In this document: positions 6,714-64,000 of the stretch, one piece after another
Layout of the letters: the number at the start of each line of letters is the position of its first letter
Numbering within the stretch: position 1 is the stretch's first letter
Assembly: GCA_041660605.1 (NCBI GenBank)
Contig: JBAZWB010000002.1
Span: 66,216-130,215 of the forward strand
DNA: 64,000 nucleotides
Reading direction: 5' to 3'
DNA from: Patescibacteria group bacterium
GTDB taxonomy: Bacteria; Patescibacteriota; Patescibacteriia; UBA10025; JAHIVO01
Made by a program: the position numbers and the translations under genes
The notes under the pieces: model-generated
Database searches by the model: none
Seen by the model: the letters and a program-made list of their open reading frames with translations, nothing else
Told to the model about the DNA's origin: nothing

Positions 6714-6749
6714 ATACGATATACTTATTTAATATCCGTGAGCACTGTC

Positions 6750-6947: not shown

Positions 6948-7024
6948 AAATTTTAATGGGAATTAACTAATGGGTAATGATATTACTTTACCGATATTCT
7001 CAATTTTATTGTGCTTCATATTGT

Positions 7025-7462: not shown

Positions 7463-7532
7463 TTTTATTTTATTAAAGTATGAAAAGTTTTAATAATAGT
7501 ATTTTTTGATATCCCCTCATAATCCAACAACC

Positions 7533-20515: not shown

Positions 20516-20592
20516 TGGTCGGGGTAGTGGGACTTGAACCCACGGCCTCATGCACCCCATGCATGCGCGCTAGCCAACTGCGCCATACCCCG
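20516..20592 (-). tRNA. tRNA-Pro (anticodon GGG) with encoded CCA
   Basis: Manual fold: acceptor CGGGGTA/TACCCCG, D-arm GCGC-AGTTGGCTA-GCGC, anticodon arm CATGC-ATGGGGT-GCATG, T-arm GTGGG-TTCAAGT-CCCAC, discriminator A, CCA. Confidence 0.8.
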
Positions 20593-35423: not shown

Positions 35424-35429
35424 ACTGTC

Positions 35430-37288: not shown

Positions 37289-37303
37289 GTGCAGAATATA
37301 AAA

Positions 37304-38251: not shown

Positions 38252-38260
38252 ACTCTATCA

Positions 38261-39613: not shown

Positions 39614-39618
39614 AAATT

Positions 39619-43111: not shown

Positions 43112-43114
43112 TTT

Positions 43115-43882
43115 TTATAAATCTTCCGCAAAAAAAGGTTCGCGTTTTTTAAATACTAAGTAGCCGACAACAAAAACTGCCACAGTAATAAGGATAGAAC
43201 CAAAAATACCTTTTAAATCCGGGGTCTGGCCGTATATGACCGCCTCACGTGAATATTGGATAATCCGGGTCATCGGATTAAGGAAAACCCAAAAATGGTA
43301 TTTTTCCGGGATCATGGCTAGTGAATAAATTATCGGCGTGGCCCAAAAACCTGCCTGCAGCAATATTTCCCAGATATGTGATAAATCACGGAATTTTATG
43401 TTTAACGACGAAATTAAAAAACCCAGTCCCAAAACAATAAGATAAAGCTCTGCTAAAAATAAAATCAACAGCAAAAACGCCGGTGTCAACTGCACTCCGG
43501 AAAAAATAAAAAAAACGACGAAGACAATTAGATTAAGAAGTAAAGTTAAAAGAGAGGTAATTGTGGAAGCAATGACAATCAAAGTGCGGGGAAAAAATAC
43601 GCGGGAAATCAGCCCACCCTTGCTGATCAAGCTGTTTACCGCATTGGTCGTCCCTTCTGCCAGATAACCCCATAAAATTATACCGAGCAGTAAATATAAA
43701 TTATAATGTTCAATGTTAAAACGCAAAAAAATAGAAAAAACTAGATACGATATCCCGAATAAAAGCAACGGCTTAATAAAAGACCAAACATAACCCAGGA
43801 CAGAACTCTGGTATTTCAGTTTGAAGTCAGAGATCGCCAGTTCACGGATCAAATTTATTTCCTTCTGGTTTATTATCTTCAT
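43115..43882 (-). CDS. ABC-2 type polysaccharide exporter permease (Wzm/TagG-like)
   Basis: 255 aa; 6 TM helices; immediately upstream of and co-oriented with the ATPase. Confidence 0.8.
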   Translation of the reverse strand: MKIINQKEINLIRELAISDFKLKYQSSVLGYVWSFIKPLLLFGISYLVFSIFLRFNIEHYNLYLLLGIILWGYLAEGTTNAVNSLISKGGLISRVFFPRTLIVIASTITSLLTLLLNLIVFVVFFIFSGVQLTPAFLLLILFLAELYLIVLGLGFLISSLNIKFRDLSHIWEILLQAGFWATPIIYSLAMIPEKYHFWVFLNPMTRIIQYSREAVIYGQTPDLKGIFGSILITVAVFVVGYLVFKKREPFFAEDL

Positions 43883-44937: not shown

Positions 44938-45459
44938 TTATCCCTCACATTCTAAATCAGCAGCTAAATCGCCACAAACTGGCGCAGTAGTAGATACCCA
45001 GTTTGAACAGGAAGTACCATCCCCTTTCAGCCAATACCAGTGCGAAGTGCTAGTACTTGGTGATTCCATTAATGCATAGACTATGTAATATGGTTCGAGT
45101 TCTCCTGGGGTTGCGCCACAGGCAACATATTCATAGTTATATAGATTTGAATCCGCTCCCGCAGATCCTGCTTTTGGATCATCCGGTACTACTGAAATAT
45201 AATCCGTTGCCAATAGCGTGCCTAAAACGGATTTAGCATTATCTAATGCCGCAATCGAAGTAACATTTGGATAAGTACTGGAATTATCGTCTGAATACAG
45301 CACTAACCCGGTCCTAATCTGACCGAGGTCTGATTTTCTAGACGCGTCGCGGGCTTTTTCTCTAGCACCGTTCAGGGCCACCAAACCGATGGTAGCCAAA
45401 ATACCGATGATGGCGATAACCACCAATAACTCAATGAGTGTAAAACCTTTCTTTTTCAT
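44938..45459 (-). CDS. Type IV pilin (candidate major pilin)
   Basis: About 173 aa from [22 protein letters not shown]; [19 protein letters not shown]; C-terminal Cys pair. Confidence 0.8.
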
Positions 45460-45689: not shown

Positions 45690-46895
45690 TTAAATAGCAC
45701 TGGAAAGGTTATACATCGGCAGTATAATGGCGGAAATGAGGAAGGCTACCCCGATACCCATGATAATCATGACTATCGGCTCAATCAAGGTGGTCATATT
45801 GCGTATTGAATTTTCCAGTTCCCGGGTGTAAAAATCTGAAACTTTTCCGAGTATTTTGTCCAATTGCCCGGACTGCTCTCCCACGCTCATCATCTGGGAA
45901 AGCATCAATGGCACTTCTTTATGCTGCACAAAGACCGTGGTGATGGAAGCGCCTCCCTCAACCTGCTCAATTGTCTCCCGGATTATATCGCGATACAAAG
46001 TATTCCCCACTACATCAGCTACGATGTCCAGGGACTTGGTCAGTGGCACGCCGGAAGCCAACAGTGTTGACAAAGACTGCGCAAAGCGGGAAATATAGGT
46101 CCGATTAAAAATTGGTCCGGCAATGGGAACTTTTATTTTCAGTAAATCAACCGTATGGCGCCCATTTTCCGTTTTTACATAAGCCCGGTAGCCGATTACA
46201 CATCCGATAATAGCCAGTATCATCAGCCACCAGAAACTACGCAGGAAATCCCCCATGCCCATGAATATCCTGGTAGTCACCGGCAGTTCCGCGGAACCCT
46301 CCTCAAAAATTGAGGTGATCTGAGGCAGGACGAACATCAGCATCAGGGAGCCGACCAGGAGCAAAGCGGATAAAATGAAAACCGGATAAATCATGGCGCC
46401 CTTGGCTTTACTGCGGAGATCATAATCCTTTTCCAGCTGATCAGCCAGATACACCAAAATCTCATCCAAACGGCCGGTTGTTTCCGCTGAGCGCACCATC
46501 TGGATGTAAAAATTGCTGAAGACTTTGGGATACTTGCCTAATGATTGCGATAATTTCGCGCCGCCATCCACTTCGTCGGCCAGATCGGAAATAACGCTCT
46601 TCAATCTGTTATTATCCGTTTGGCGCACCAGCACCCGCAAAGCGCGGACGATCGGCACGTTTGAGGAAATCATGACCGACAGCTGGCGGGAAAAAACTAC
46701 GATATCTTTCGCCTTGACGCCGGAACCGAAAGACAGGCCTTTTAGAAATTCCCTGGCTTTCTTTTCTTTCAAATCGACAATCACAAGATCCTTATCCCTT
46801 AGAATTCCATAGGCGATATTTTCGGTTGGCGCGACCACCATTCCATTGATTACCTCTCCGGTTTTATTTCTGGCTTTATAATTAAAATTGGCCAT
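45690..46895 (-). CDS. pilC: Type IV pilus assembly platform protein PilC (GspF family)
   Basis: 401 aa; two GspF repeats, 3 TM segments. Confidence 0.9.
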   Translation of the reverse strand: MANFNYKARNKTGEVINGMVVAPTENIAYGILRDKDLVIVDLKEKKAREFLKGLSFGSGVKAKDIVVFSRQLSVMISSNVPIVRALRVLVRQTDNNRLKSVISDLADEVDGGAKLSQSLGKYPKVFSNFYIQMVRSAETTGRLDEILVYLADQLEKDYDLRSKAKGAMIYPVFILSALLLVGSLMLMFVLPQITSIFEEGSAELPVTTRIFMGMGDFLRSFWWLMILAIIGCVIGYRAYVKTENGRHTVDLLKIKVPIAGPIFNRTYISRFAQSLSTLLASGVPLTKSLDIVADVVGNTLYRDIIRETIEQVEGGASITTVFVQHKEVPLMLSQMMSVGEQSGQLDKILGKVSDFYTRELENSIRNMTTLIEPIVMIIMGIGVAFLISAIILPMYNLSSAI

Positions 46896-46922: not shown

Positions 46923-47309
46923 TTAGCTAACCAGCTTTTTTACTTTTTCCACCACTTCGGAGGGCATAAAATGTGCCTTGATCAGATAGTCATTTGCACC
47001 GAGTGCCAATCCCTTATTTACATCCTCGCGCTGCCCGAGATTAGTCAGTAAAATTACTGGAATATTGCGGGTTTTTGCCTGTTTTTTCAGGGTTTTCAGG
47101 ACGTCAAATCCGCTCATTTTTGGCAGGATTATGTCCAATAATATTAACTGGGGCATCTCCTCTTGCGCCATTTTCAGGCCTTTCTCTCCATCATTGGCCT
47201 GCACCACTTGGAATCCCTCTAAATTAAGCTTGGCCTGATACATTCCCGCTAAAAAAGTATCATCCTCGACTAACAGAATTTTTGTTTTTACTGATTTATT
47301 TTTTGGCAT
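46923..47309 (-). CDS. Stand-alone response-regulator receiver domain (CheY/PilH-like)
   Basis: 128 aa; ILLVEDD...LILLDIILPKMSGF. Confidence 0.8.
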   Translation of the reverse strand: MPKNKSVKTKILLVEDDTFLAGMYQAKLNLEGFQVVQANDGEKGLKMAQEEMPQLILLDIILPKMSGFDVLKTLKKQAKTRNIPVILLTNLGQREDVNKGLALGANDYLIKAHFMPSEVVEKVKKLVS

Positions 47310-47328: not shown

Positions 47329-49080
47329 TTAATCTTTTGTTGCCCTGATTACCTCTGATAAAGAAGTTTTTCTCTCTAACGCCTTGAGGATGCCGTCTTG
47401 GCTCATCGCTACCATATTCTGCCGCTTGGCGGTTTCCTTGATGGCATCAATGGTAGGATTAGTGACAATGACATTCCTCAGCTCGTCATCAACTGCCAAT
47501 ATTTCATCGATTAACACCCGGCCCTTATAACCGGTGTTTTCACATTTCGTACATCCCTTGCCCTCATAGAATTCCAGTTTTGGTTTTTCCTTGCCAAACC
47601 GTATTTTTATTATTTCCGGCGGGATGGTTGATAGCTGCCTTTCCACTTCTTTGACCATTATCTCGGGCAGTTTAATCTTCTCCTGGCAGTACGGGCATAA
47701 ACGCCGCACCAGGCGTTGGGCAACGATAGTGGATAAGGCGGAGGTGACCAGGAAAGGTTCAATTTTCATATCAATCAAGCGCGGTATAGCGCCAAAAGAA
47801 TCATTGGTATGCAGAGTGGAGAGTACCAAGTGGCCGGTCAGCGCGGCATGGACCGCCAATTCCGCTGTTTCATTATCGCGAATTTCACCGACCATGATGA
47901 TATCCGGATCCTGGCGCAGGATGGAACGCAGACCGGCGGCAAATGTCAGACCGACATCAGGATTGATTTGGGACTGGTTAACGCCGTCAATATAATACTC
48001 AACCGGATCCTCCAGGGTAATAATATTGATGTCTTCCTTGTTCAAAATGGTCAATAATGCCGAAAGAGTAGTGGATTTTCCTGAACCAGTCGGCCCAGTC
48101 AGCAATATCATACCCACGGTTTTTTTGATTGACTGGCGCATTATTTCCAGATGTTCGCCTTCAAAGCCTAATTTTTCCAGGTCCAAAACTACTGCCGCCC
48201 GGTCTAAAATACGCATCACCACTTTTTCATTGCTGAACAGCGGCAGGGTGGAAACACGGTAATCAATGACCCTCCCGTCCCATTCAGTGCGGAAACGCCC
48301 GTCCTGCGGTACGCGGGTCTCGTCCAGTTTCAAATTGCATAGTACTTTTATCCTGGCCACGATGGAAGAATGCACGTATTTGGGTAAAACCAGCGAGGTA
48401 TGCAGGATACCGTCAACGCGATAACGCACCCTGGTCTCATTCTCTACCGGCTCAATATGTATGTCAGAAGCATTGCCCTCAACCGCGTGCTTCAAAATAA
48501 CTGAAACCATTTTTGAGACTGGGGCGCTTTTTACCACCTCTTCCATGCCCTTTTCCTTGCCGAGAATGGCGTCTAAATCGTTACCGTCAACTTTTTCCGT
48601 GCCAGCCAGCGCCTCTTCGACTTCAGCGCCCAGCGTGGCGTATTGCTTATGGGCAAAACGGAAACCGCTTTGGGAGATTATATAATACTTAATCTTAAAA
48701 CTATTTTTTCTGGCTATAAACTCAATGGCTTCAATAGCTTTGAAATCGCTGGGGTCAACCATGGCTACTCCCACCTCGCCGCCGTCCCGGCCGAAGGAAA
48801 CGATATGGTAATTTTCTGCCAATTCGCGGGGTATCACGTGCAGGACGGACTGTGAAATAGTCTTGCCAAACAGGTCGATATAGGGCACGCCAATTATTTT
48901 ACCGCGGACTTTCGTCAGATCTTCCTCGGAAACAATGCCCTTGCGGTTTATCAGATTCAATAATTCATCCTCATCTTTCACCTCCACTCTTAGCTCAGCC
49001 AATTTTTCTGCAGTCAGGTAGCCTTCCTCGACCAATATATCGAGAAAAGATTTTTTTGCTTGTATTTGCGTGTTTTCCAT
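47329..49080 (-). CDS. pilB: Type IV pilus assembly ATPase PilB (GspE family)
   Basis: 583 aa; N-terminal GSPII_E_N, Walker A LLTGPTGSGKSTTL, tetracysteine CPYC...CTKC. Confidence 0.9.
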   Translation of the reverse strand: MENTQIQAKKSFLDILVEEGYLTAEKLAELRVEVKDEDELLNLINRKGIVSEEDLTKVRGKIIGVPYIDLFGKTISQSVLHVIPRELAENYHIVSFGRDGGEVGVAMVDPSDFKAIEAIEFIARKNSFKIKYYIISQSGFRFAHKQYATLGAEVEEALAGTEKVDGNDLDAILGKEKGMEEVVKSAPVSKMVSVILKHAVEGNASDIHIEPVENETRVRYRVDGILHTSLVLPKYVHSSIVARIKVLCNLKLDETRVPQDGRFRTEWDGRVIDYRVSTLPLFSNEKVVMRILDRAAVVLDLEKLGFEGEHLEIMRQSIKKTVGMILLTGPTGSGKSTTLSALLTILNKEDINIITLEDPVEYYIDGVNQSQINPDVGLTFAAGLRSILRQDPDIIMVGEIRDNETAELAVHAALTGHLVLSTLHTNDSFGAIPRLIDMKIEPFLVTSALSTIVAQRLVRRLCPYCQEKIKLPEIMVKEVERQLSTIPPEIIKIRFGKEKPKLEFYEGKGCTKCENTGYKGRVLIDEILAVDDELRNVIVTNPTIDAIKETAKRQNMVAMSQDGILKALERKTSLSEVIRATKD

Positions 49081-50120: not shown

Positions 50121-50738
50121 TTATTTATAATAGGTGGTGAGATTTAGCGCGTAAACGTCCGTTTCCGGGGAGTATGAAAGGGAATTCAGCTCTAAGAGCG
50201 GCAGGCGCTGGCTCATATTATCCAGAAAATCTTTTAATTTGAAATAGCTGTCAATGCCTTTGATGCCGAGAGTGATGTTCAGGCTGCTGACTGCGCTGCC
50301 CTTGGCGGCGGTGTCGCCCAAAGTATTGCCCAAAGGACCGCTTTCTATGCTGTTCAGAACCAATTTATTTTCTGTAATAAAATCTTTTATTTCAATCATT
50401 AAGAAAGGTATTTCTGATTCGCTGGGCAAAAAATAACTCAGTTGATCCAGCTTTTCTTTCTGTATGCCGGAATATTTTTCCTTGAGCTTATTCAATTTAT
50501 CCAGGGTCAATTGCTTTTGCTGCAAGACACCCTCTTCCGTCCGCAGACTAGTGATGCCGGTATTGTTTATCTCTGTCAGCGTATCCTTGACAAACAGCAT
50601 ATAAGCTCCGCCCAGTATTATTAAAACTACCAGGGCAACAATAATTATAAAATATTTATTGAAGATATAGGCTATTTTTGTTTTTATTGATGCTAGTTTC
50701 ATATTTTTATCGCGGGAAAAGATAAATTGTCGGATCAA
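50121..50738 (-). CDS. PilO-like type IV pilus inner-membrane component
   Basis: 205 aa; single TM, coiled coil, then ...LPSESEIPFLMIEIKDF...LVLNSIE PilO-like block. Confidence 0.5.
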   Translation of the reverse strand: MIRQFIFSRDKNMKLASIKTKIAYIFNKYFIIIVALVVLIILGGAYMLFVKDTLTEINNTGITSLRTEEGVLQQKQLTLDKLNKLKEKYSGIQKEKLDQLSYFLPSESEIPFLMIEIKDFITENKLVLNSIESGPLGNTLGDTAAKGSAVSSLNITLGIKGIDSYFKLKDFLDNMSQRLPLLELNSLSYSPETDVYALNLTTYYK

Positions 50739-52830: not shown

Positions 52831-53949
52831 TTAAACAATCTCGCGCATAGCCAAACCGATGGCGACAGATAATTTTGGCCCTAATTGTTTAAGCATTTTA
52901 TCTATTTCAACCGGATGTATGACCCTGGCCCAGGGATCACCGACAAATGACTTGATATTGAATATGTTCTGGATGTAATCCGTCATATTGACCAGGAAAG
53001 ACGAACCGCCGGTCATGATCACCTTGGAGATCGGCTGTTTATTCTGATTTTGGTAAATATTCAAAATATACCTGACCTCATTTATTATAGAATTGATCAG
53101 ATAAGCGACCGGCTCCGGAAGATTTTCAATTTTTTCTTTCATTACCGCCATACCCATATCTCTCTTGAATTGCTCTGCCTGCCCTTCTGACAAACCCATG
53201 ATATCAACCAGTGATTTGGTGATATTCTTGCCGCCAACGTCGATACTGCGGTTGAGGATGGGCACGCCGCCGGAAAAAATTATAATACTGGTAGAAGCGC
53301 TGCCGATGTCAATTACCATTATCGGATTGCGATCGTTGCCTACCAGCGATCTCTCCAGAGCGAATGATTCGGTTTCCAGGCCAACCAGCTGGATGCCAAC
53401 TTCCTTAAAAATCTCTACATAGCGATTGACCAGATTTTTCGGAGCCGCTGTCAGCAATACTTTCAAATTGCCTTTTCTGGGCGGATTGTCCGATTCCCCA
53501 TCTTTATCTTTTTTATTTTTCTTGCCAGTTTTTTTATCATCCAAATCTTCCTTATTTATTCCTGCCTGGCCAGGCTCTTTCAGTATCTCCCAGTCCAAAA
53601 TCATCTCTTCCAGTGGAATTGGTACAAACTTCTTTGCCTCCCAGCGCACGGCGGAAATAAGGTCCTTCTTATTCATTTCCGGCAGGCTGATGATCGAGCT
53701 GAATACGCTGAAACTGGGCATGGCGGAAATCGCCCGGTCGGAAGAAACTTTTGATGTTTTCAGCAATTCCTTCAGATGGCCGGCCAGCGCACGGCGAGCC
53801 TCCGGACTGTCGTCTTTAATAATATTATATGTTTCATCTATAAAACCGTAGGTCACCAGCTGCGGCCGGTTGTTGACGCTTTTTAACTCCACTACTTTCA
53901 GGCTCGATCCTCCCAGATCAATGCCGACATAACTTTGTTTTTTTGCCAC
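52831..53949 (-). CDS. pilM: Type IV pilus assembly protein PilM (actin-like ATPase fold) with insert
   Basis: 372 aa; SYVGIDLGGSSLKVVELK N-terminus; DIGSASTSIIIFSGG. Confidence 0.85.
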   Translation of the reverse strand: MAKKQSYVGIDLGGSSLKVVELKSVNNRPQLVTYGFIDETYNIIKDDSPEARRALAGHLKELLKTSKVSSDRAISAMPSFSVFSSIISLPEMNKKDLISAVRWEAKKFVPIPLEEMILDWEILKEPGQAGINKEDLDDKKTGKKNKKDKDGESDNPPRKGNLKVLLTAAPKNLVNRYVEIFKEVGIQLVGLETESFALERSLVGNDRNPIMVIDIGSASTSIIIFSGGVPILNRSIDVGGKNITKSLVDIMGLSEGQAEQFKRDMGMAVMKEKIENLPEPVAYLINSIINEVRYILNIYQNQNKQPISKVIMTGGSSFLVNMTDYIQNIFNIKSFVGDPWARVIHPVEIDKMLKQLGPKLSVAIGLAMREIV

Positions 53950-54000: not shown

Positions 54001-54369
54001 TTATTTTGTTTTTGATTTGATAATAATAGTTGTAAGAATTTTTATAATCTCCTGAGATTTATCTTTTAGCATCACCTTGGATTCCTTGGTAACTCTGTTG
54101 ACCGAAAATATATATTCAAGCCAGTTATCAGTTTCAATAGCTGATTTCCTGGCATAATGAAGATAATTAATAAAATCCTTCCTGCTTGTTGCCCCGGAGC
54201 CTTCAGCCAAATTACCAGAAATCGAGGTCGCTGAACGCACAATCTGACCAACTAAAACCTTAATAATGGAATTATATGGGATCTTCTTGCAAAGATTAAA
54301 AACCATTAAACTCAAACTAAATGATTTCTTCCAAATATCCAAATCCTTATAATTTTTAAACGTACCCAT
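54001..54369 (-). CDS. Four-helix-bundle protein (23S rRNA intervening-sequence protein family)
   Basis: 122 aa; YKDLDIWKKSF...IVRSATSISGNLAEGSG...ARKSAIETDNWLE family signature. Confidence 0.8.
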   Translation of the reverse strand: MGTFKNYKDLDIWKKSFSLSLMVFNLCKKIPYNSIIKVLVGQIVRSATSISGNLAEGSGATSRKDFINYLHYARKSAIETDNWLEYIFSVNRVTKESKVMLKDKSQEIIKILTTIIIKSKTK

Positions 54370-54420: not shown

Positions 54421-57400
54421 CTATGGTATGACCTGCTGATATACCGGCAGCGCTTTTGTAAAGTCTGATAAACCCGGCGGCGTATTGGCTACCACCCTTC
54501 CATCATACACAATCTGTTCAGACGGAGCAAGATCTTTGGAATACTTCCTGTCAAAACTGTAACCCTTGGCTACGAACAAACCGGAGACCTGGAGAGGTAA
54601 TCGATAATTAACCACCAGATTACCGGTCCCCTCCTTGAGGCCACGGTATTCGCCATCTCCGGCTGTTGTCTCAACTGTATCGTTGCCGCGGCGCAGCCGT
54701 AATACCATTTCAGATTTGCCGCTGACGCCTGGCTGGTAATCACCCCTGCCGATAAAAGACTCTACTAAAGTGGTAATATCCCGCAGATAGACCGTCTCAT
54801 CAGTAGTCCATTCGGTATCGCTGATATTTTGGGCAGTTTCCGAGACATCATCAGTCATTAGCGCGCCATAAGGATTTGAGCTGAAATCAGGATAATCTCT
54901 CACCAAACCCTGCCTGGTCTGGAATCCCACTCCTCCGCTGTCGCAAACACTGGCACGTAAGTGCGCATCTAATATTTCCACATTGGCAGGCAGATTAATT
55001 CCTTTAAACCGTAAATATGTCCTTTCGGCGCTACCGGCATTCCAGCCGATATTCATGCAGGCGGCACCCTGATCATAACTGCCTGGTAAGGCCGCAGTAT
55101 CATTGCCTAGATCTGTTATATCATAATTCACCTGTTGCGGTGAAAATTCTATTATTAATTCTGCCGGGGAACCATCCTCAACTGAACTAAAACTGCGATA
55201 TTCATCGCCACTGGCATCACCCTCTTTCAACACGACTCCCATATATGAAGTTGCATTATCATAATATGTCTTTTCATACTCATCGGAATTTATATACTTC
55301 TGTACCAAAGACTTGATGTCCGGAGTGATGTTTTCGCCATTATCAACCCAATCAGTAACATCATAGCTGACGCTATTGGAGGTGGGTATATCATACAAAT
55401 TCTGGGCGTTAGGATTCTGAAAACTTGGAGGAGGAACAGTATGATTAAAAGCATAAATGTCATTATAATTAGCCAGATATATCCTACCGATAAAATCACC
55501 AGCGACCGCATTGTCACCTGTTAATTTTATTTTAGCGGATTTAATTTCCGAGTTGGGCGGGATATTCAAGCCGCCGGTGCCAAAACCCCAGCGCAAGTAC
55601 GAACGGTAGGTGACGCCAGCATCTAAACCGAACTTTAATGAATCGCCGTCATTTACATTATTATAAACAGCTCCAGCTTTTGAAACATAAGCGTCGTCAA
55701 CGCCAGCCTGGACTGTCTGCGATACTGGCAATCTTCTGCCAGTACTGATAACGCCCTTTACAACATCATCCGTGGTATCCGGATCAATAGCCACAAACAC
55801 GCCAGCCAGCTGGTCAACCGTGGAATTAATGTAAATATTGCCGCGCACGATTACCGCCGCTGAAGCCATCTCGCTGATGGAATCAAGCGTGCCGGAATTA
55901 TAATAAGTATTGTCGTTGATTTCCAGATCGCCATCAATCACAATCAATCCATTGCCAGAAGTTCCATTAAAACCATTTTCAAAAGTCATTTCATTATTTA
56001 TGACGTAATGGTCCGCTCCGCTAAAATGATAAATCTGGCCGTCTAATGCCATACTGCCGTGAGTGATGCTGCAGTTACTGATATCAACTACGCTGCCGCT
56101 GGCGTCTACCTGCGTCTGAACTCTATTGCCATTACGATTCAGACCTCCAGTATTTGCAACTAAACCATCTATATCCAAAGTTTCCAAAACATTTTGCCCA
56201 AGCGGGAATCCCGCGCCCGCCGTCCACGAACCGCCGTGGTCCGCGCAGCTGATCTCGGAAACATAAGCGGGAAGGCTGCACTTACCGCCGATCAATGAAT
56301 CCAGGCCCTGCTGATAAAAACCGCTGGTTGGCAATCCGGTCTGGGTCTGAGAGTAATAGCTAGGGATGCCCTGAATGCTGCCGTCTGCCAATATTAAATA
56401 TGTTGAAGTAAAATCTTCAGAACCTCTGGGCGGCGGCGCCAGCTGGATATTCTCCTGGGCGTAAATATCGCTGTACATAGTATTGACCCAGGGGATGCCG
56501 ATCAAAGCGCCTACCGGCATGACCTCCAGCCAACCCAGGCCGGATTTAAACTTGCCGGGAGTCCAGCGGTTGTATTTCAAATCAGAGGCTACACAATATT
56601 TTTCTGCGCTCGATGGCCAACTATAAGTAATACAATAAGGATATTGGGGATTAGTGCAATCAAGTGATGACCCAAAATTATCCAGCGCGCCGGTAGTCAG
56701 CCAGCGTTTTTCCGTTCGCCAATTGCCATCATCCCCGGAACCGACAATATACATATACGCAGTATCAATAGCCATCCCATTGACATATTTACTCGCCGCC
56801 GCGCCAGTTACCACCCCACTGCCGGCATCGCCAAAGTCACCGGCTGGACAGGCGCCTGCAGTGCAGAGCGCGCCGGTATTAATATTATATTTTTCAATTC
56901 TCAAATCTTCTTCAAACTCATCATTTCCTGCAATATAAATATATTCCTGGTCAATATCCAGCTCACCGAGAATAAGGGTGGCAGACTGCCCGGCAATCAC
57001 CCCACCAGTCCCAAAATCACCGGCTGGACAGGCGCCTGCAGTGCAGAGCGCGCCGGTATCCAAACGGCGTTTTTCGATATGCCAGTCATTAGCAACGGTG
57101 CCGCCAATATACATGTATTCACTGTCGATTTTTATTGAATACAGCGTAACATTCGTCCCTGCGACAGTGATTATTCCGCTCCCGGCATCGCCAAAGTCAC
57201 CGTCTGAACAAGTGCCAGCGGTGCAGAGCGCGCCGGTATCCAGGCTGCGTTTTTCGATACGCCCTTTATTAGAATCATTGAAGCCTGCTACATATAAATA
57301 ATTATCATCAATAACAATATCTTGAGCCTTATTACTATCGCTGGCACCGGTTATTATTCCGGCAGTGCCGAATGAATCAACCAATGAACCATCTGACAGA

Positions 57401-60400
57401 CGGCGTTTTTCGATACGCCAGTTATTAGAGTCGTCCTTTCCAGATATGTACATATAACTGCCATCAATAGCTATGCCACCTGCATTCATCCCATCAACAC
57501 TGGTAACGGTTCCACCTGTACCAAAACTTGCGTACAAAGAGCCGTCGGATAACAACCTTTTTTCTATACGCCAGTTACTGGGCGGCGTAGTCGCGCCAAA
57601 CACATACATATATGTTGAGTCAATGGCGATTCTTCTAGCACCATTGCCTCCAGCAGGTCCATTTACTACCCCCCCAATGCCAAAGGTCCCAGCTGAACAG
57701 ACGCCAGCAGCACATAATTCCCCGTCAGCTGACCGGCGTTTTTCTATATGCCACGTTGCGTCATCATTCGAACCTATGGTGTACATATAATCAGTTTCAA
57801 GGGCTACGTCATTCGCACTTGACGTTGAAGCTACTTCCACTATTCCATCTCCATCAAACGCTCCGCATTGCAGGCCGCCGGCAAAAGCGACCGGATCAAC
57901 CTGCGTATCAATCCAAATAATATGCGGATTGCCCAAGGCATCCAGTTTAACGCTGTTTAAGCGCGAATGCCAGTCTGATGACGCGTCAACAGTCAAATAT
58001 AGATCATCATAATTTAATAGGCCGCCGGAATCCCCAGATGCCGTTACCCAGGCGCCGCTGCCACCGGAAGACAAAGGGCTCCAATAGCGGTAGCGCACAT
58101 CAGCGATCCCGCGCCAAGCCAAGTCGTCGCCCCAAACCACGTGTGGCCTGTCTTGGTCATCAAACGTCAAATCCATGGAATGGCTGGCATGAACCGTCAT
58201 TTCCGGTTCACCCACAGCCGGACGATTAGGCCAGATATCATCAAACTGCCCATCTACTGGATTTGCATCCACCCAATCCTTAGCGGCCGTATCCCACTGC
58301 AAAAAGATTAAACGCCCCGGATCGCGCCAGAGCAAGCCCGGTCGGTTGTCAGAAGTCAGGGCAATTTTGGGATCAGCGCCTTCTGGATTAGGAATACCGA
58401 TGCCCCAACTGTTTGAATCAATATTAGCCGATACGTCATCATCAGGGCCGTCAGCAGGGTCAGCGTCCACCCAACCGCTACCATCCCACCAGCGGTAAAA
58501 AATTTCTTCGCCCGAAGCAGTACTGGCCGCGGTATTTTCCTGCCAGACAATGTGGGGCCTTTGCTCCGGCGTCTCATTGCCCAGGGCCAGTCTGGGATTA
58601 TTAGATTCAGTAGCGGTATTGCTGACATTAACAAAACCATTGGCCGTACCGTCAGCCGTCACCCAAGCCGTGCCATTATTCCAGCGGTAATATATTTCCG
58701 CTAAAGCATATGAATCTTTTCGATAAACAATATGCGGATGATTGTTTCGGTCTATTTCCATAGAGGGCATATAACTCCCCGTATCAACCTGGCTCGGCGC
58801 TTGCCAGGACCTCGCCGTACTGTCCCAGGATGAATAATAAACAATGCTATTTTCGTCCCAAGCCAGATGCGGCAGGTCATTGCCGTCCAGCGCTAAAGAG
58901 AGACGTTCGGCATCCTCGCTCTCTTTACCGGCCGGTTTTGCAACCTGGCCGTTAACGCCCGGCTGGTACTCACTGTCGTCCGCGGTCAGCCAGCGGCCAT
59001 TTTTGTATTTAATATAATAAATGACATAACTGGCGGTGGCATCGTTATAATTCACCCAGGCCAGATGCGGATCTCCGGCTGAATCAATGGCGATGTCCGG
59101 ATATCCCGGATTATCATAAATATTAGTGGCTACTTTTTTTGTATTACTGACATTAACGGCCGGCAGCCAGCGCGAGCGCGTGCTGAAATCGTTCTTTTCC
59201 GCGTTCCAGCCCCATCCGAACAGGCTATATAACGGTATTTCATCGGGATTCAAATCCGGATCGCCAAGGTACGACTGGGTATCTACGCTAGTGCCAACCG
59301 TACTGTAGCTCCCCTTATTACCCTGCCCATCGTCATACTCTCCGCTCCAGCTGATCCAGCCCCAGGCACAAGGCTGTGTTGAGCCAGCGATACCGCAGTT
59401 ATAGCCGGCGCCGATGTCTTTCAAGGACATAATGCGGGCCCAACCGTCTATGCCATGCGTCGTGCCGTTAAAATTGGAAGTAGCAAAAGTATGGCACACG
59501 TCATTTACCGGATCAATCGTACAGGTGCCTGCTTGCCCACCCGAGGCGCTACGGCTACAGGTATATCTTTTGTCATAATCAAACAAACAAGTGGCCGATG
59601 CCGGCACGGCGCAATGAGTCAAATTCACCGTGGTGCACCAAGCGCTATTATCGGAGCACTGGCCGTACATATTACCGTCTTTATCATAGCAGTAGCCATA
59701 AGTAACTCCATCCGGCGGACTGCCGGCGCTCTCATTGCAAGTGTTTGCCACGCCACAATCAATGTCAGTGTAACAACCCTTTTGCGAATCATTACTGCAG
59801 ACGCTCTCATATGAACTTATCCAGCCTAGGCCGGTGGTAACTGGTTCTGCTGCTGGTGATATTTTATAAATAAAATTTGTACCATAATCTGTTGACCAGA
59901 TACTGGATCCGTCATTTATGATCTGCTTAGGCTCTGACGGATTTCCAAAGTCAAACCTTTTTATGGTGCTCTGATTAATGGGATCTATTTGATAAACAGA
60001 ATGTTTCTGCGCATCCCCCAGCCATAAATTACCGTGAAAATATTCCAGCCCATACATGTCATCGCCAGTCCAGTCGCCATCAGTTATTTGAATAACATTG
60101 CCATTTGCTGGATCGAGCCTGGTCAGTCCCGACTGGCGAGCTACCCATAGATATCGGTTGTCAAAAGCCAAGTCATACGGCTTAGTTATGCCTGCGCCTA
60201 AATTGTAAGTATTATTTACTGAACCATCTAAACCAATTCGTGAAATAAAATTACTGCCGTAGTTTGGCGCCCAGACATACTTGCCGTCAAACAGCGGCCA
60301 GGTAGGCGAACTGCCGACTCCATAACGGGCTGATTCTACGCCGTCACTCACCCGGATTCGCGATACTTCCCCAGCCACCACATTATGAGTCACCCACAGC

Positions 60401-63400
60401 TCTGCTTCAACATAAACAATCCCCTCTAAATTGCAGGCGCCGGTATCGCAGCCGGAAATCGCTATAGAACCGCCAGTCTGAACCGGAAAAACCGCGCCAT
60501 TGCTTGGATCAACTTTGTATATTATCCCGTCGCCAGCTGAAACCACCCACAGATTGGTGCCGTCATAGGCTAGGCTCCGTAAATTATTACCAAACGCAGC
60601 GCATGGTGTAGTAGGCGGCAATAGAAGATGATCTTCTCCGTCATCACAATCCAACTCATGCCCCGTTGCCTTACTAATACGGGCCAAACGGCTGTTGGTG
60701 CCCGATTCCGCGCCCAGTACCACCCATATTTCTCCCACGCCTACTTTAGCTACGCCAAAACCCTGATCCATGCCCAGATCAGCACTGTCGCTTTTAGTCC
60801 ACTCGTCCTCTAATGCCTGACCGGAGGCGCTCCAGGCATAGCCCTCCAGCGGATTAAATTCCCGCGACTCCACGAAATGGGTATTCAGTCCCCAGTGATT
60901 GGCCGCACCGCAGCTGTAATCGCTCTGGTCATAGCGGTTCAGGCAGTTAAATGACACCCAGCCGATATTTGACGACCAGGCCCAGCCGACCACGTTGTTT
61001 TTCACCAGGAATAATGTCGCTTCACTCCCGAAATTAGTCGGCACGCAGCTGCGGTCCTGGACACAGCCAGTGGAATCTATGACAGAATCTTCGCCATTGC
61101 GGGCTTTAACTTTAAAATCATATTTGACGGAAGCCTCCAGGTTGGTAATATCCACTCCCGCGTCTCCGCCCCAGTCCGCCCGCGATCCCCAGGCAACGAC
61201 ACCTGGCGCCGGATCATAACCATTTGCGCAGTCGGGATTATTCACCGGGTCAACGGTGGTAAAGTCTATCGAACCATCAGATTTAACATACTTTTCCCCG
61301 GCCACTGTGCCGTCGGCATTATACTTGGTAACGCAAATGGCGTACTGGGTATATTCAACCGGTACGGTAGGATTGTCATCAGAGCGCAGGCGCAGGTTCA
61401 TGGTCGTACCGTCAACCGTATAAATGAACGGCCGCCTTGGCGCCCAGGCCAGCGTATAAATGCATTCTCCCGGATTAGGGGGGATAAAACCGCTGTAATC
61501 TCCGGTACCGTCATTCGGATTTGAGCAATCGCCGTTGCATGACTGCACCTGGTAGCAATACTCCCTGTTTCCCTCTAGGCCATTATCAGTAGCCTTGGGG
61601 TTCTTGCGGTATTCATGGAATCCCGGATCACTCCCGGCTCCATAATTACCGCTATTTTTTATTTCTTCAAAAATAATTCCCGAACTGCTCTCCAATAAAT
61701 TTGAGTAGTCACTGACCTCGCCGGCATCCAGGCTGATCGTTTGCTCTGCGCGATCTAAAAATTGTATAGACGCAGGTGTTTGAATTGAAGTATAGGCCGA
61801 AGCGGTCGATGACTGCGGCCCAGCGCCAGAAGCATTGGAGGCCTTGACATATACCTGATATCTGGAATTTGGATTCAGCCCTTCCTGTAAATATTCATCG
61901 GTAAATATCGGCACTTTTCCATTGAGGGACAGGCCGGTCAGTGCATCAAAAATTTCATATGAGGTAGGTAAGGGAAGTCCTAGCGGTGGACTCCAGTTCC
62001 ATCTGATTGAACTCAAATCCTGGGTGGTATGGTTAGGCGCAGGCAAGACAGGCCAGAGCGGAGCGCACGGCGGGGTCAGTCCCTGTGCAGTACTGCCACC
62101 GCTATAGCTGGTGCAATCATTCAAATGAGGGAGATCATTGAGACATGCCCCGGTGTCATCCTGATTTTTCGCCCTCATATGGAATATATAGGTCGTATTG
62201 CACAGAGATAAATCTTTAAATGTCAATATTCCGCCATCCGCGCCGGCCAGTCCTAAGCCGCCTGAACTAGTTGGCTCAGTCTTAGTCCTCCAGCCATCAT
62301 ACCCCGGATAATCATTCCAGCTTGTTCCGCCGTTGGTTGAGTATTGAATCTGATATTTTGTAAGGTGGGGATTGCCGGTAAGGCCAGTGACGGTTACCTT
62401 ACAATTTTGATTGTCTGTTGTATCATACTTACATTCTACCCCGATCAAAGGTTTTTTAGCGGCTGTAAAGGCTGAAATAGTAGCAGTCTTTTGGCCCTCC
62501 CTGCCCCGGGAATCAACTGCCCGCAAATATGCCGAATACTGCGTATTCGGCGTTAAGGAACCGCCCCATCTGTCTAACATCTGCGTAAAACTAGTTAGTC
62601 CTCCAAAGATGTCTGCTCCTATTTGCGTACCACCAAAATCATAAAACTTGTAATAATCTACGGCTAATCCACCCACCGGTGCTTGCCATGACCATCGCAG
62701 AATGGTATATACTGGATTGTCGGCATGGGCAAAACTGCTTGGCGGGCAGGGCGGCAGAGTGTCGTACCGCGAGGTGGCAGAATATGCCGTCTCTACCAAA
62801 TCAAAATTTCTTGCTTTGACTCGATAATGATAAAAATAATTCGCGTCACAGGTTATTCCTCCGGATTCCCTATGGGTAAAAGTGAAATTGCGCGGCTGCG
62901 CGGTCCAGTCCATCGCCGTTTTTCCGCTGCCCCAATTTGGCGTAGTACTAGTGGTATTGCTATATTGAATAAAATAATGAGTACCATCAGGATTATTGGC
63001 GGTATTTATGGTCACCCTACAATAATATCCAAGCGCGTCATAGCCGCACGTCACCGCACCAACATCTAGCAAGGGCTGGTCCGCTAAGGAGCAAAAATGG
63101 GTGACCGCTGACATGGGGGTATAGAGAGTGCAAGGTCGGTCTTCGAGAGCGCAATCAAGATCGTTTTCGCAAACGTAGTTGTTTCCACATCTGCCAGCTA
63201 CTTCTCCCTCGACTTGCGGAGTATCGCGGTTCCGTGATTTGGTGGTGAAATCAAGGCAGGTATTCGGACCGATAGCGCTCCCGTCCACCTTTGTGGACAC
63301 GGTCACGGGCGCGGATAGCGGCACGTTAGTCCCGGTAGGGGTAGGATCCCACTGGCACAACCCGTCAAAATCAGCATCAGTTGGATCATAGAGATCGCAC

Positions 63401-64000
63401 CAGACACCGGCATCAGCGGGATTCGTTGTCCAGCTGCCATTGTTCTTCAGGTAATGGCCGCAACTGGTTGAGTCACAGATGGCATAATCGGTATTAGTGG
63501 GGTTAATAGCTTCGGGAGATGATGGCGGATCCGTATTGATCTGGACCTGTATCGAATTCACTGTGACCGCACCAATCTGTGGCGCACTCTGGTTGCGTGC
63601 GCGGGTGGTCTCCATGGAGAAGGCCGTCGGCGCAGTCCTTATGGCATCACCGTTTGTCGCGTAGGCGCCAATCGAATAATAGGTGGTGTCCGGCGAAAAA
63701 TCATTGGGTGTCGAGTCATATCCAACCAAATTTAGATACGGGGGCATATCCATGCCAACATGCGGAATAGTGCCCTCCATGTTATTCCATTCATCTAATG
63801 TTTGGGTGACTATACTATTACTGTTAAGCAAAAAAACTGGATAAAATCCAAAGTGGGCTCCTGTTCCGCCAGCTATGCTCCTGCCGTTCCAGCTGAAAGT
63901 AAAATCCTGGAGAGGTGGTATCAAGCCGGGATTAGTAACGTTCTTAATACGAAATTGGGAGTATTCGATCGAATCAGTAACCGGCGCGACATTTCCCAGG
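54421..64000 (-). CDS. Giant extracellular repeat protein (>3,190 aa; N-terminus lies beyond the window) with delta-60-type and propeller-like repeats
   Basis: The ORF tracker start at 63924 is a TTG; the frame stays open to position 64000; about 8 tandem ~60-aa units (YMYIxG...W[RH]IEKRRLxDGxL...FG.GG); NHL/propeller-like YLWV/NLWV repeats; Cys-rich segments. Confidence 0.85.
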   Translation of the reverse strand, partial: LGNVAPVTDSIEYSQFRIKNVTNPGLIPPLQDFTFSWNGRSIAGGTGAHFGFYPVFLLNSNSIVTQTLDEWNNMEGTIPHVGMDMPPYLNLVGYDSTPNDFSPDTTYYSIGAYATNGDAIRTAPTAFSMETTRARNQSAPQIGAVTVNSIQVQINTDPPSSPEAINPTNTDYAICDSTSCGHYLKNNGSWTTNPADAGVWCDLYDPTDADFDGLCQWDPTPTGTNVPLSAPVTVSTKVDGSAIGPNTCLDFTTKSRNRDTPQVEGEVAGRCGNNYVCENDLDCALEDRPCTLYTPMSAVTHFCSLADQPLLDVGAVTCGYDALGYYCRVTINTANNPDGTHYFIQYSNTTSTTPNWGSGKTAMDWTAQPRNFTFTHRESGGITCDANYFYHYRVKARNFDLVETAYSATSRYDTLPPCPPSSFAHADNPVYTILRWSWQAPVGGLAVDYYKFYDFGGTQIGADIFGGLTSFTQMLDRWGGSLTPNTQYSAYLRAVDSRGREGQKTATISAFTAAKKPLIGVECKYDTTDNQNCKVTVTGLTGNPHLTKYQIQYSTNGGTSWNDYPGYDGWRTKTEPTSSGGLGLAGADGGILTFKDLSLCNTTYIFHMRAKNQDDTGACLNDLPHLNDCTSYSGGSTAQGLTPPCAPLWPVLPAPNHTTQDLSSIRWNWSPPLGLPLPTSYEIFDALTGLSLNGKVPIFTDEYLQEGLNPNSRYQVYVKASNASGAGPQSSTASAYTSIQTPASIQFLDRAEQTISLDAGEVSDYSNLLESSSGIIFEEIKNSGNYGAGSDPGFHEYRKNPKATDNGLEGNREYCYQVQSCNGDCSNPNDGTGDYSGFIPPNPGECIYTLAWAPRRPFIYTVDGTTMNLRLRSDDNPTVPVEYTQYAICVTKYNADGTVAGEKYVKSDGSIDFTTVDPVNNPDCANGYDPAPGVVAWGSRADWGGDAGVDITNLEASVKYDFKVKARNGEDSVIDSTGCVQDRSCVPTNFGSEATLFLVKNNVVGWAWSSNIGWVSFNCLNRYDQSDYSCGAANHWGLNTHFVESREFNPLEGYAWSASGQALEDEWTKSDSADLGMDQGFGVAKVGVGEIWVVLGAESGTNSRLARISKATGHELDCDDGEDHLLLPPTTPCAAFGNNLRSLAYDGTNLWVVSAGDGIIYKVDPSNGAVFPVQTGGSIAISGCDTGACNLEGIVYVEAELWVTHNVVAGEVSRIRVSDGVESARYGVGSSPTWPLFDGKYVWAPNYGSNFISRIGLDGSVNNTYNLGAGITKPYDLAFDNRYLWVARQSGLTRLDPANGNVIQITDGDWTGDDMYGLEYFHGNLWLGDAQKHSVYQIDPINQSTIKRFDFGNPSEPKQIINDGSSIWSTDYGTNFIYKISPAAEPVTTGLGWISSYESVCSNDSQKGCYTDIDCGVANTCNESAGSPPDGVTYGYCYDKDGNMYGQCSDNSAWCTTVNLTHCAVPASATCLFDYDKRYTCSRSASGGQAGTCTIDPVNDVCHTFATSNFNGTTHGIDGWARIMSLKDIGAGYNCGIAGSTQPCAWGWISWSGEYDDGQGNKGSYSTVGTSVDTQSYLGDPDLNPDEIPLYSLFGWGWNAEKNDFSTRSRWLPAVNVSNTKKVATNIYDNPGYPDIAIDSAGDPHLAWVNYNDATASYVIYYIKYKNGRWLTADDSEYQPGVNGQVAKPAGKESEDAERLSLALDGNDLPHLAWDENSIVYYSSWDSTARSWQAPSQVDTGSYMPSMEIDRNNHPHIVYRKDSYALAEIYYRWNNGTAWVTADGTANGFVNVSNTATESNNPRLALGNETPEQRPHIVWQENTAASTASGEEIFYRWWDGSGWVDADPADGPDDDVSANIDSNSWGIGIPNPEGADPKIALTSDNRPGLLWRDPGRLIFLQWDTAAKDWVDANPVDGQFDDIWPNRPAVGEPEMTVHASHSMDLTFDDQDRPHVVWGDDLAWRGIADVRYRYWSPLSSGGSGAWVTASGDSGGLLNYDDLYLTVDASSDWHSRLNSVKLDALGNPHIIWIDTQVDPVAFAGGLQCGAFDGDGIVEVASTSSANDVALETDYMYTIGSNDDATWHIEKRRSADGELCAAGVCSAGTFGIGGVVNGPAGGNGARRIAIDSTYMYVFGATTPPSNWRIEKRLLSDGSLYASFGTGGTVTSVDGMNAGGIAIDGSYMYISGKDDSNNWRIEKRRLSDGSLVDSFGTAGIITGASDSNKAQDIVIDDNYLYVAGFNDSNKGRIEKRSLDTGALCTAGTCSDGDFGDAGSGIITVAGTNVTLYSIKIDSEYMYIGGTVANDWHIEKRRLDTGALCTAGACPAGDFGTGGVIAGQSATLILGELDIDQEYIYIAGNDEFEEDLRIEKYNINTGALCTAGACPAGDFGDAGSGVVTGAAASKYVNGMAIDTAYMYIVGSGDDGNWRTEKRWLTTGALDNFGSSLDCTNPQYPYCITYSWPSSAEKYCVASDLKYNRWTPGKFKSGLGWLEVMPVGALIGIPWVNTMYSDIYAQENIQLAPPPRGSEDFTSTYLILADGSIQGIPSYYSQTQTGLPTSGFYQQGLDSLIGGKCSLPAYVSEISCADHGGSWTAGAGFPLGQNVLETLDIDGLVANTGGLNRNGNRVQTQVDASGSVVDISNCSITHGSMALDGQIYHFSGADHYVINNEMTFENGFNGTSGNGLIVIDGDLEINDNTYYNSGTLDSISEMASAAVIVRGNIYINSTVDQLAGVFVAIDPDTTDDVVKGVISTGRRLPVSQTVQAGVDDAYVSKAGAVYNNVNDGDSLKFGLDAGVTYRSYLRWGFGTGGLNIPPNSEIKSAKIKLTGDNAVAGDFIGRIYLANYNDIYAFNHTVPPPSFQNPNAQNLYDIPTSNSVSYDVTDWVDNGENITPDIKSLVQKYINSDEYEKTYYDNATSYMGVVLKEGDASGDEYRSFSSVEDGSPAELIIEFSPQQVNYDITDLGNDTAALPGSYDQGAACMNIGWNAGSAERTYLRFKGINLPANVEILDAHLRASVCDSGGVGFQTRQGLVRDYPDFSSNPYGALMTDDVSETAQNISDTEWTTDETVYLRDITTLVESFIGRGDYQPGVSGKSEMVLRLRRGNDTVETTAGDGEYRGLKEGTGNLVVNYRLPLQVSGLFVAKGYSFDRKYSKDLAPSEQIVYDGRVVANTPPGLSDFTKALPVYQQVIP

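Follow-up and report, generated by a model that had tools for sequence, protein, structure and literature searches.

The 64,000-nucleotide stretch of DNA analyzed here (hereafter the window; GenBank assembly GCA_041660605.1, contig JBAZWB010000002.1, positions 66,216 to 130,215), derived from a Patescibacteria group bacterium, carries on its minus strand a type IV pilus (T4P) operon headed by a giant gene that runs off the window edge. We found that this gene is the most inflated form of a large, unannotated family of Patescibacteria proteins built on a common scaffold, and that its position at the head of the pilM-pilN-pilO-...-pilB-response regulator-pilC-pilin operon is conserved. The giant gene is intact. 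Within the window it occupies positions 54421-63999 of the minus strand, where translation yields 3,192 sense codons plus a stop codon without any internal stop, and the frame is open at the edge; an initial annotation, made by a model from the sequence alone, had rightly described a frame of more than 3,190 residues cut by the window boundary. The list of open reading frames (ORFs) gives a span of 54421..63924 with a TTG start, but this TTG is internal, and the gene goes on for 2.4 kb past the window. A search of 5.8 billion proteins returned the full-length protein (P0001; 4,004 aa as called), which is 100% identical to the window frame and is recorded on two contigs, the longer of which measures 960,449 bp. 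For the off-window part we used the locus L001 (ena:ERZ27249449:k141_729649), in which the window edge corresponds to position 12436. The called start lies at window-equivalent position 66435, with 812 N-terminal residues off-window, and an in-frame ATG is found 54 nt further upstream (about 66489). The start or stop shortly beyond position 64000 that the initial annotation had considered does not exist; 812-830 further codons follow instead.

With the upstream sequence from L001, the N-terminus of the giant could be read as MFKNSKKLLNILLSLSVIMTAVLLGYVWF, and those of its orthologues are alike. Use of the upstream ATG adds MFKNSKKLLNILLSLSVI and results in a basic-then-hydrophobic N-terminus that resembles those of the orthologues P0002 and P0003, so that the true product probably comprises 4,022 aa and begins with an N-terminal membrane helix. 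This hydrophobic segment is the only one in the entire 4,022-aa product; a transmembrane (TM)-like segment is present at the same place in all three full-length orthologues and, by hydropathy and inspection by eye, corresponds to a Sec-type signal peptide or signal anchor. The full-length relatives are collinear: P0001 from this genome, P0002 (4,484 aa), and P0003 (4,400 aa) from Ca. Kerfeldbacteria. In the in-window part of the protein G, D, S, A, T, and N are abundant and 65 cysteines are present.

The best-conserved part of the three full-length relatives is the C-terminal stretch of about 430 aa (44% identity). Its last 55 residues are near-invariant in six aligned C-termini (PLQVSGLFVAxGYNFDRKYTKDLAPAEQIVYDGRVVANTPPGLSDFTKALPIYQRVTP), with about 40 invariant columns across six proteins whose overall identity is 44-53%. 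When 1.84 billion cluster representatives were searched exhaustively with HMMER, a profile of this C-terminal region found 1,440 proteins at E<=1e-3, of which some 25 represent clusters in the range of 3,000-5,073 aa. The other family proteins are for the most part 350-1,000 aa long; their own C-termini match, and only to profile positions ~70-325 and ~950-1011. Since these small members skip the intervening profile stretch, the pair of DNRLRE domains encoded there is a giant-specific insertion. The small members follow a simple plan: a Sec signal peptide, Cys-rich GWAWSxNxGWIxF repeats, and a module of about 300 aa that ends with ...SGLMIARKFxFxRTY..AExIIYDGRLLANTPPGLxDFAKALPIWR. A hidden Markov model (HMM) of 44 small members (481 positions) aligned collinearly with three giants at full E-values of 1e-78 to 1e-85; for P0001 (full E 2.7e-78) it did so in four ordered pieces that span HMM positions 32-477. 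As judged by these alignments, the giant contains the whole ~480-aa small protein in collinear order, interrupted by a propeller (P2) with a Cys-rich segment, by two further propellers (P3 and P4), and by the DNRLRE pair. The scaffold consists of four Cys-rich GWxWS..GWIxF repeats, a module predicted to form a right-handed beta-helix, and the near-invariant 55-aa tail. The Cys-rich, Trp-containing segments pointed out in the initial annotation are real and correspond to these repeats, which are the hallmark of the family.

Among 32 complete metagenome members of the scaffold family, sizes range continuously from about 460 to 3,100 aa, and N-terminal extensions and insertions recur at a few scaffold sites. 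We also considered that the giant arose by fusion of a small pre-pilM gene with a separate large gene upstream, and found no BLAST similarity to such upstream genes of the small-member loci L017, L020, and L022; expansion by insertion and extension fits better than gene fusion. No Pfam or NCBIfam model matched the small members, the one small member scanned against PHROGs had no match, a 33-member small-family profile matched no PDB sequence, and the source names of the ten family members looked up were either empty or "hypothetical protein." A hypothetical giant thereby becomes a defined object: it belongs to a widespread family that Pfam-A, NCBIfam 20.0, and PHROGs v4 do not contain and for which the PDB offers no sequence relative. 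No description of the scaffold family was found in the literature searched, the coverage of which was incomplete, so that an earlier description elsewhere is possible. A protein-family census of the candidate phyla radiation (CPR) lists PilA, B, T, C, M, N, O, and D as well as an MdbA-like oxidoreductase, and contains no family upstream of pilM (PMC6744442).

The genomic position of the family was assessed from both directions. When the C-terminal profile was run against 185,579 species genomes, 13 loci were found, all in Patescibacteria-type metagenome-assembled genomes (MAGs) including one closed 1.31-Mb chromosome of Ca. Kerfeldbacteria. In each of the 13 loci, pilM directly follows the stop codon of the giant gene, and the rest of the operon comes next wherever the downstream sequence suffices. 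All six small members looked up likewise lie directly upstream of the gene in the pilM position. For the reverse test, 80 metagenome loci were chosen by PilM alignment alone, and in 65 of them the sequence upstream of pilM extends over at least 400 nt. Sixty of these 65 loci (92%) carry a family member that terminates 12-554 nt before pilM and lies on the same strand. In the window, which holds just this one family member, the giant and pilM are separated only by a 122-aa four-helix-bundle gene, while they are directly adjacent in orthologous loci. No terminator-like site was found on the coding strand between the stop codon of the giant and pilM, and promoter and terminator scans of this interval remained at chance level. 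The initial annotation had correctly placed the gene beside pilus genes, as PilM, PilN, PilO, PilB, PilC, and a pilin are all encoded directly downstream. Since the Cys/Trp segments and the C-terminus represent the core of a widespread pilM-adjacent family, this adjacency is not incidental but a defining, conserved property of the family.

The giant thus encodes a strongly elaborated version of this scaffold, the parts of which are listed in Table 1 together with the genes of the pilus operon. A DUF7948-like domain (29 bits) is found in the N-terminal extension of about 1,800 aa, together with FN3 domains and one IEKR repeat array or propeller. The initial annotation's FN3-like stretches are borne out by at least one domain that passes the PF00041 threshold (44 bits against a cut-off of 25, E 2e-11, aa 663-733), while the other FN3 matches are weak. 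Likewise, the YLWV/NLWV blades assigned there to an NHL-like propeller exist as seven hWV motifs (window-protein aa 1090-1366), but they have no match to NHL; instead, they belong to P2, which scores 46 bits against PF21959 (DUF6923; cut-off 27) and reaches E 6e-8, below the cut-off, with Vgb_lyase. The motifs of P3 lie at aa 1644-2025, and its resemblance to BNR_4 (E 1.6e-5) and NF053835 (E 2.3e-7) is weak, with both matches under their cut-offs. Scaffold piece 2 aligns with P0001 residues 2318-2424 (i-E 3e-7). The beta-helix module is recognizable in the giant by the motifs LAPPPRGS..., GNGLIVIDGDLEIN, IVRGNIYIN, and GVFVA. Both DNRLRE domains score above the NF033679 cut-off and have a beta-sandwich similar to that of carbohydrate-binding modules (CBMs). 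No catalytic family model matched any segment of the giant in the HMM scans. A C-terminal sorting signal was considered and rejected, the sole hydrophobic segment being N-terminal: the C-terminal tail is polar, with no LPXTG/PEP-CTERM-type signal, and no NCBIfam sorting model matched the C-terminal segment.

Table 1. Segments of the giant gene and genes of the pilus operon, with positions in the window (HMM, small-family hidden Markov model; i-E, independent E-value).
Feature	Position	Strand	Remarks
Giant gene, in-window part	54421..64000	minus	Stop codon 54421-54423; C-terminal 3,192 codons
FN3/Ig-like region, Cys-rich loops	61009..63582	minus	PF00041 match 61801-62013, flanked by weaker FN3 matches
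Scaffold piece 1, GW repeats 1-2 (GWAWSSNIGWVSFNC ... GYAWSASG)	60826..61008	minus	HMM 32-88 vs P0001 1810-1870, i-E 7.5e-11
Propeller P2, inserted; seven hWV blade motifs, DUF6923/virginiamycin-B-lyase type	59845..60777	minus	PF21959
Cys-rich segment and scaffold piece 2, GW repeats 3-4 (GLGWISS, AWGWISWSG, GWGWNAEKN)	59164..59844	minus	HMM 110-187
Propeller P3, inserted; seven PH[LIV][AV]W units, BNR_4/PDIAV-lipoprotein-like	57865..59163	minus	
Propeller P4, inserted; seven IEKR blades, delta-60-like sister family	56701..57843	minus	
Scaffold piece 3, last GW repeat (SGLGWLEVMP) and conserved, predicted beta-helix module	55735..56664	minus	HMM 146-414 vs P0001 3258-3567
DNRLRE domain pair, inserted; carbohydrate-binding-module fold	54616..55698	minus	NF033679
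Scaffold piece 4, near-invariant C-terminal tail (PLQVSGLFVAKGYSFDRKYSKDLAPSEQIVYDGRVVANTPPGLSDFTKALPVYQQVIP)	54430..54615	minus	HMM 415-477 vs P0001 3941-4002, i-E 6e-25
Four-helix-bundle gene, 122 aa, between giant and pilM	54001..54369	minus	PF05635/TIGR02436
pilM	52831..53949	minus	TIGR01175 185 bits, cut-off 133
pilN-like gene, 631 aa	50707..52602	minus	N-terminal INLLP motif, single TM segment at ~aa 444
pilO-like gene	50121..50702	minus	PF04350 23 bits, cut-off 22
Membrane-anchored FN3 protein, 338 aa	49101..50117	minus	Slot of a ~100-aa protein in small-member operons
pilB	47329-49080	minus	
Response regulator	46923-47309	minus	
pilC	45690-46895	minus	
Type IV pilin	44938-45459	minus	

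The repeats of P4 are those that the initial annotation had assigned to the delta-60 family. The pattern given there ([ID]xx[YF][MI]Y[IV]xG...W[RH]IEKRRLxDGxL..FGxxG) is real and so is the tandem array, although it comprises seven units and not about eight: the motif [WGL][RH][IT]EK[RY] occurs at aa 2085, 2145, 2196, 2248, 2308, 2368, and 2429 of the window protein, with a spacing of 51-61 aa. The array does not occupy the central third of the in-window protein, as had been stated, but lies at 64-76% of its length. An AlphaFold 2 (AF2) model of P4 displays seven four-stranded blades at a predicted local distance difference test (pLDDT) score of 87, and the IEKR units are therefore confidently predicted to form a seven-bladed propeller. 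The off-window 812 aa carry another set of IEKR repeats, which is more degenerate. At the DNA level no tandem repeats were found at the giant gene, which indicates that the IEKR units are old and diverged and rules out a recent repeat expansion.

Membership in the delta-60 family was not borne out. TIGR02608, PF17164, and NHL gave no match at E<=10 on the whole window protein, on nine overlapping segments of it, or on the repeat segment, whereas a delta-60 consensus used as a positive control scored 181 bits with TIGR02608 (cut-off 76.5) and 112 bits with PF17164 (cut-off 27). These scores, which are the only validation of the hand-written consensus, demonstrate that both models are present and working in the libraries. 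One off-window N-terminal unit reached 22 bits on TIGR02608 against its cut-off of 76.5, and PF17164 was passed by four of 66 IEKR-family members. When a profile of these 66 sequences was compared with the delta-60 consensus by hhalign, the two aligned in register over two units (98.4% probability, E 4.6e-15). Since profile homology in register persists despite the failed models, the IEKR repeats are, as judged from profile comparison, a divergent sister family of delta-60 that lies outside the curated models; the relationship and the propeller fold proposed in the initial annotation hold, while the family assignment does not. In common with delta-60/DUF5122, the IEKR family has a unit of about 55-60 aa, the blade-junction motif R-x-x-x-DGSL-xx-FGtgG, and a seven-bladed propeller fold. 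It differs by its own signature, IAIDSTxMYVVG...QWRIEKR, and four of the seven blades of P4 possess a Cys-x4-Cys loop (TGALCTAGACPAGDFG) that replaces DGSLxxSFG.

The IEKR module (aa 2040-2470; window 56590-57882) has 357 homologues at E<=1e-3, with the 60-aa consensus unit DGSLVxxFGTGGVVTSNPSxxxDxAxxIAIDSTxMYVVGxDxxPGxxQWRIEKRxL. The 120 homologues listed are mostly 250-750 aa long, and the few named ones stem from Planctomycetota, Parcubacteria, and Nitrospirota. A lipobox was found with a strict pattern in 14 of these 120 proteins, several more have signal-peptide ends containing a Cys as seen by eye, and one (P0081) matches the type IV pilin N-terminal pattern while another (P0012) appears pilin-like by eye. 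Searches of PDB sequences with the IEKR profile found only designed "Bagel" propellers and short-motif matches to ribosome-inactivating proteins (RIPs). PF00161, the RIP family, was matched by 40 of 66 IEKR-family members, many of which also matched DUF7599, RNF220, or PRS7_OB. IEKR proteins do not have room for such domains and the PDB matches to RIPs are confined to short motifs, and for these reasons such matches across the family (P0004-P0123) look like systematic false annotations. The IEKR propeller is hence a distinct sister of delta-60, common but overlooked by current models and wrongly labeled by automated pipelines, e.g., as RIP.

The last 753 aa of the giant were modeled with AF2 from a six-sequence alignment, which resulted in a moderate mean pLDDT of 59 and in values of 70-85 for a beta-rich core and the two DNRLRE sandwiches. 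The model suggests that the core is likely a right-handed beta-helix. Its top structural matches are non-enzymatic ice-binding proteins and adhesins; a weak resemblance of the modeled helix to the T4P-linked proteins ComZ and tapirin is only a lead. The best structural matches of the DNRLRE domains are the CBMs of chondroitin lyase and alginate lyase, and that of P4 is the enzyme CylK.

All cultivated Patescibacteria have been reported to live attached to other microbes (PMC11623550). Their T4P are leading candidates for partner contact, and the source of specificity is mostly unknown. From the data given above we infer, at a probability of roughly 0.55, that the giant functions as a pilus-coupled, multivalent protein that binds glycans or partner cells. 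The protein of about 4,000 aa would be exported via Sec and probably remain anchored in the membrane by its N-terminal hydrophobic segment, with the remainder outside the cell. Its scaffold has been inflated in this lineage by the ~1,800-aa N-terminal extension, by three seven-unit propellers placed in scaffold loops, and by two DNRLRE CBMs in front of the tail. The weak BNR-type resemblance of P3, the lipobox and pilin-like N-termini among the IEKR homologues, and the similarity of the predicted beta-helix to adhesins and ice-binding proteins are counted here in favor of binding-type modules. The conserved scaffold and tail may couple the giant to the T4P apparatus or filament, while the variable inserted modules could serve as a long, multivalent arm that attaches to glycans or to the surface of a partner cell. 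Pilus extension and retraction would thereby be tied to specific attachment, as for PilY1 or the tapirins, families to which the giant does not belong. An attachment role for a giant exported propeller/FN3 protein, as suggested in the initial annotation, is plausible.

A broader and more tentative proposal is that the scaffold family constitutes the missing partner-recognition component of Patescibacteria T4P, with the core docking to the pilus or its machine and the insertions setting specificity. If so, specificity for host or substrate would depend on hypervariable insertions, which amount to about 3,500 aa of propellers, FN3 domains, and CBMs at the most and are missing altogether at the least. 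The family keeps a constant position as the first gene of the pilus operon, and its scaffold admits large binding-domain insertions. Kerfeldbacteria are enriched on large-pore filters, which has been read as strong attachment to hosts that "no genomic features" explain (bioRxiv 10.1101/2020.05.14.094862). The giant family is a candidate for such a genomic explanation, and giant versions of the scaffold would then account for the unusually strong host attachment of the Kerfeldbacteria-type clade.

Several points weigh against a pilus-coupled binding protein. What is known of the scaffold family comes from sequences and models; the distinction between signal anchor and cleaved signal peptide was made by eye and hydropathy only; and the invariant tail, like the first ~170 residues of the C-terminal model, has a pLDDT below 50 and is not confidently placed, so that docking to the pilus is pure inference. 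Since a pilin-type leader, a PilY1 domain, and neighboring minor-pilin genes are lacking, the giant may never ride on the filament. In particular, a pilin-borne adhesin was rejected, as the class III signal peptide is absent: no class III motif is present in the N-termini of P0001, P0002, and P0003, and the N-terminal segment had no match to N_methyl (PF07963) at E<=0.01, whereas the true pilin of the operon carries this motif (G|F-T-L-I-E). Moreover, the PilMs sampled in the reverse test are at least 42% identical to those of family-bearing operons, which restricts the figure of 92% to one part of the Patescibacteria. Finally, near-universal presence at a fixed operon position would fit a core part of the pilus machine equally well.

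Such a structural part, for example an extracytoplasmic collar spanning the cell wall or S-layer, or an alignment partner of PilN/PilO, that replaces the missing PilP/PilQ and whose inserts are lineage-specific decoration, is in our view the foremost competing explanation, albeit a rather doubtful one. It would account for the fixed place of the family at the head of pilMNO (60/65, 13/13, and 6/6 loci), for the strong conservation of the tail, and for the lack of PilQ in CPR bacteria (PMC6744442); PilN and the post-PilO protein are, in addition, enlarged together in giant operons, suggesting that the extracytoplasmic parts co-vary. For a tightly packed subunit it would nevertheless be unusual to accept, as this scaffold does at several positions, inserts of hundreds or even thousands of residues in addition to N-terminal extensions. 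CBMs, propellers, and FN3 domains, which make up the inserts, are modules of the binding type, and the family is missing at 2-5 of the related pilM loci.

Less probable still is an extracellular glycan-degrading enzyme, in which a beta-helix lyase or hydrolase would cooperate with the CBMs and a sialidase-like propeller to open the capsule or wall of the partner for the pili. Right-handed beta-helices and BNR propellers are common folds of polysaccharide lyases and glycosidases, P2 is of the Vgb-lyase type, both the lyase CBMs matched by the DNRLRE domains (chondroitin, alginate) and CylK point toward enzymes, and cryo-TEM (cryogenic transmission electron microscopy) studies report CPR pili reaching into host cells. 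The absence of any catalytic family match in all segments, the non-enzymatic nature of the top beta-helix matches, and the sub-threshold scores of BNR_4 and Vgb_lyase, however, render this function unlikely. We regard it as very improbable that the giant is a stand-alone adhesin of canonical delta-60 and NHL propellers whose proximity to the pilus genes is incidental. Giant surface proteins are common in CPR bacteria, and the profile-level homology to delta-60, the propellers, and the FN3 domains are all in keeping with this explanation, but neither the delta-60 nor the NHL models recognize the protein, although the positive control is detected, and the synteny statistics largely refute it, since adjacency to pilM is conserved even for small members without any propellers. 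That the gene is an assembly chimera or a decaying pseudogene, which its unusual length alone might suggest, is hardly conceivable in view of 9.6 kb without a stop codon, the identical protein on two contigs, collinear orthologues of 3,000-5,073 aa in many MAGs and one closed chromosome, and the lack of DNA-level tandem repeats that could mislead assembly.

The gene neighborhood has further peculiarities. In L001, three large secreted proteins are followed by a four-helix-bundle gene, the giant, a second four-helix-bundle gene, pilM, and the pilN-like, pilO-like, FN3, pilB, response-regulator, pilC, and pilin genes, an order that is also kept around P0002 and P0003. The PilN-like protein comprises 631-691 aa in giant operons vs 335-424 aa in small-member operons, and the product of the post-pilO gene, which contains FN3, 317-338 aa vs about 100 aa. 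The INLLP motif of the PilN-like protein, which binds PilM, is N-terminal while the sole TM segment lies at ~aa 444, implying a cytoplasmic insertion of about 400 aa. A stand-alone response-regulator receiver gene is located between pilB and pilC in every related operon examined that covers this stretch, those of small members included. The three secreted proteins upstream of the giant (L001 151-9377; 985, 1,292, and 765 aa) keep their synteny in related genomes. In each of them, a Sec signal peptide is followed by a common A-W-E/Q-E-P...AP motif, and L017 encodes, upstream of its small member, a protein of 1,087 aa with a similar post-signal motif. An FDGxYxW propeller-blade motif is common to these three proteins and to P2 of the giant. 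Several MAGs with this Patescibacteria-type operon (L005, L010, L012, and L015) bear the title "uncultured Gammaproteobacteria bacterium" in their TPA records, which is very likely a wrong taxonomic label.

Two divergent four-helix-bundle genes flank the giant, one in the window (54001-54369, minus strand) and one off-window (L001 9488-9901). Their occurrence varies among related loci, with none in L002, one each in L003 and L014, and an upstream copy in L007. Their family, PF05635/TIGR02436 ("23S rRNA intervening sequence protein"), includes Avd, the accessory protein of diversity-generating retroelements. The Avd-like genes hinted that the giant might be the target of such an element, which we rejected: no pair resembling template and variable repeats was found in 32 kb of L001, and no reverse transcriptase was found nearby, with no YxDD motif in any window ORF of at least 200 aa.

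Elsewhere in the window, positions 32457-43882 hold a lower-GC (0.38-0.41) envelope glycan gene cluster. One of its products, of 988 aa, unites a GT2 glycosyltransferase, a Wzy_C/O-antigen-ligase-like domain, and TPR repeats in a single chain; the cluster also encodes GT4 enzymes and an ABC ATPase with a fused methyltransferase domain. The GC content drops to 0.31 at 6001-8000, compared with about 0.45 in the flanking DNA, and no ORF of at least 120 aa is found at ~6003-7025; this region may be an island or non-coding. A tRNA-Pro(GGG) gene (20516-20592, minus strand) is the sole RNA gene detected by Rfam and ARAGORN in the 64 kb.

Among known systems, PilY1 provides the working analogy for the proposed pilus-coupled binding protein. 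PilY1 is a tip-associated adhesin of the type IVa pili of Pseudomonas and Myxococcus, a non-pilin protein exported via Sec, with a conserved C-terminal part that contains a seven-bladed propeller and a variable remainder. The giant is likewise a large non-pilin protein encoded at a T4P locus, and a conserved docking end might similarly be combined with a variable binding end. No segment of the giant, however, matches the PilY1 family (PF05567); it is encoded in front of pilM and not with minor pilins, its conserved C-terminal part is a predicted beta-helix plus tail and not a propeller, and its propellers are insertions that most family members lack. The tapirins of Caldicellulosiruptor (bioRxiv 10.1101/359786) and ComZ of Thermus thermophilus (PDB 6qvi) bear no sequence relation to the giant and differ from it in operon position and domain plan. 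PilX1 and PilX2 of Nanosynbacter lyticus TM7x are Patescibacteria T4P-locus proteins with lectin-like or seven-bladed propeller modules and no canonical PilD signal; host binding is halved by deletion of pilX2, which encodes the propeller-bearing protein, and sugars inhibit it (PMC11623550). Both proteins are modular pilins, composed of a pilin helix at the N-terminus and a globular pilin domain, and are encoded among pilin genes, whereas the giant lacks both a pilin domain and the N_methyl motif, is about 10 times larger, and is encoded upstream of pilM.

The giant membrane proteins of Vampirococcus lugosii (1,392-4,163 aa), which have been proposed to serve in host attachment (PMC8080830), resemble the window giant in size class, membrane or extracellular location, content of WD40/propeller and FN3 domains, and suggested role, but have not been linked to a conserved pilM-adjacent scaffold. 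The large genes found upstream of small family members in other lineages have no similarity to the giant either. Giant CPR surface proteins and T4P-linked adhesins are known kinds; the window gene is the extreme form of a non-pilin, insertion-tolerant scaffold that is encoded in the T4P operon itself.

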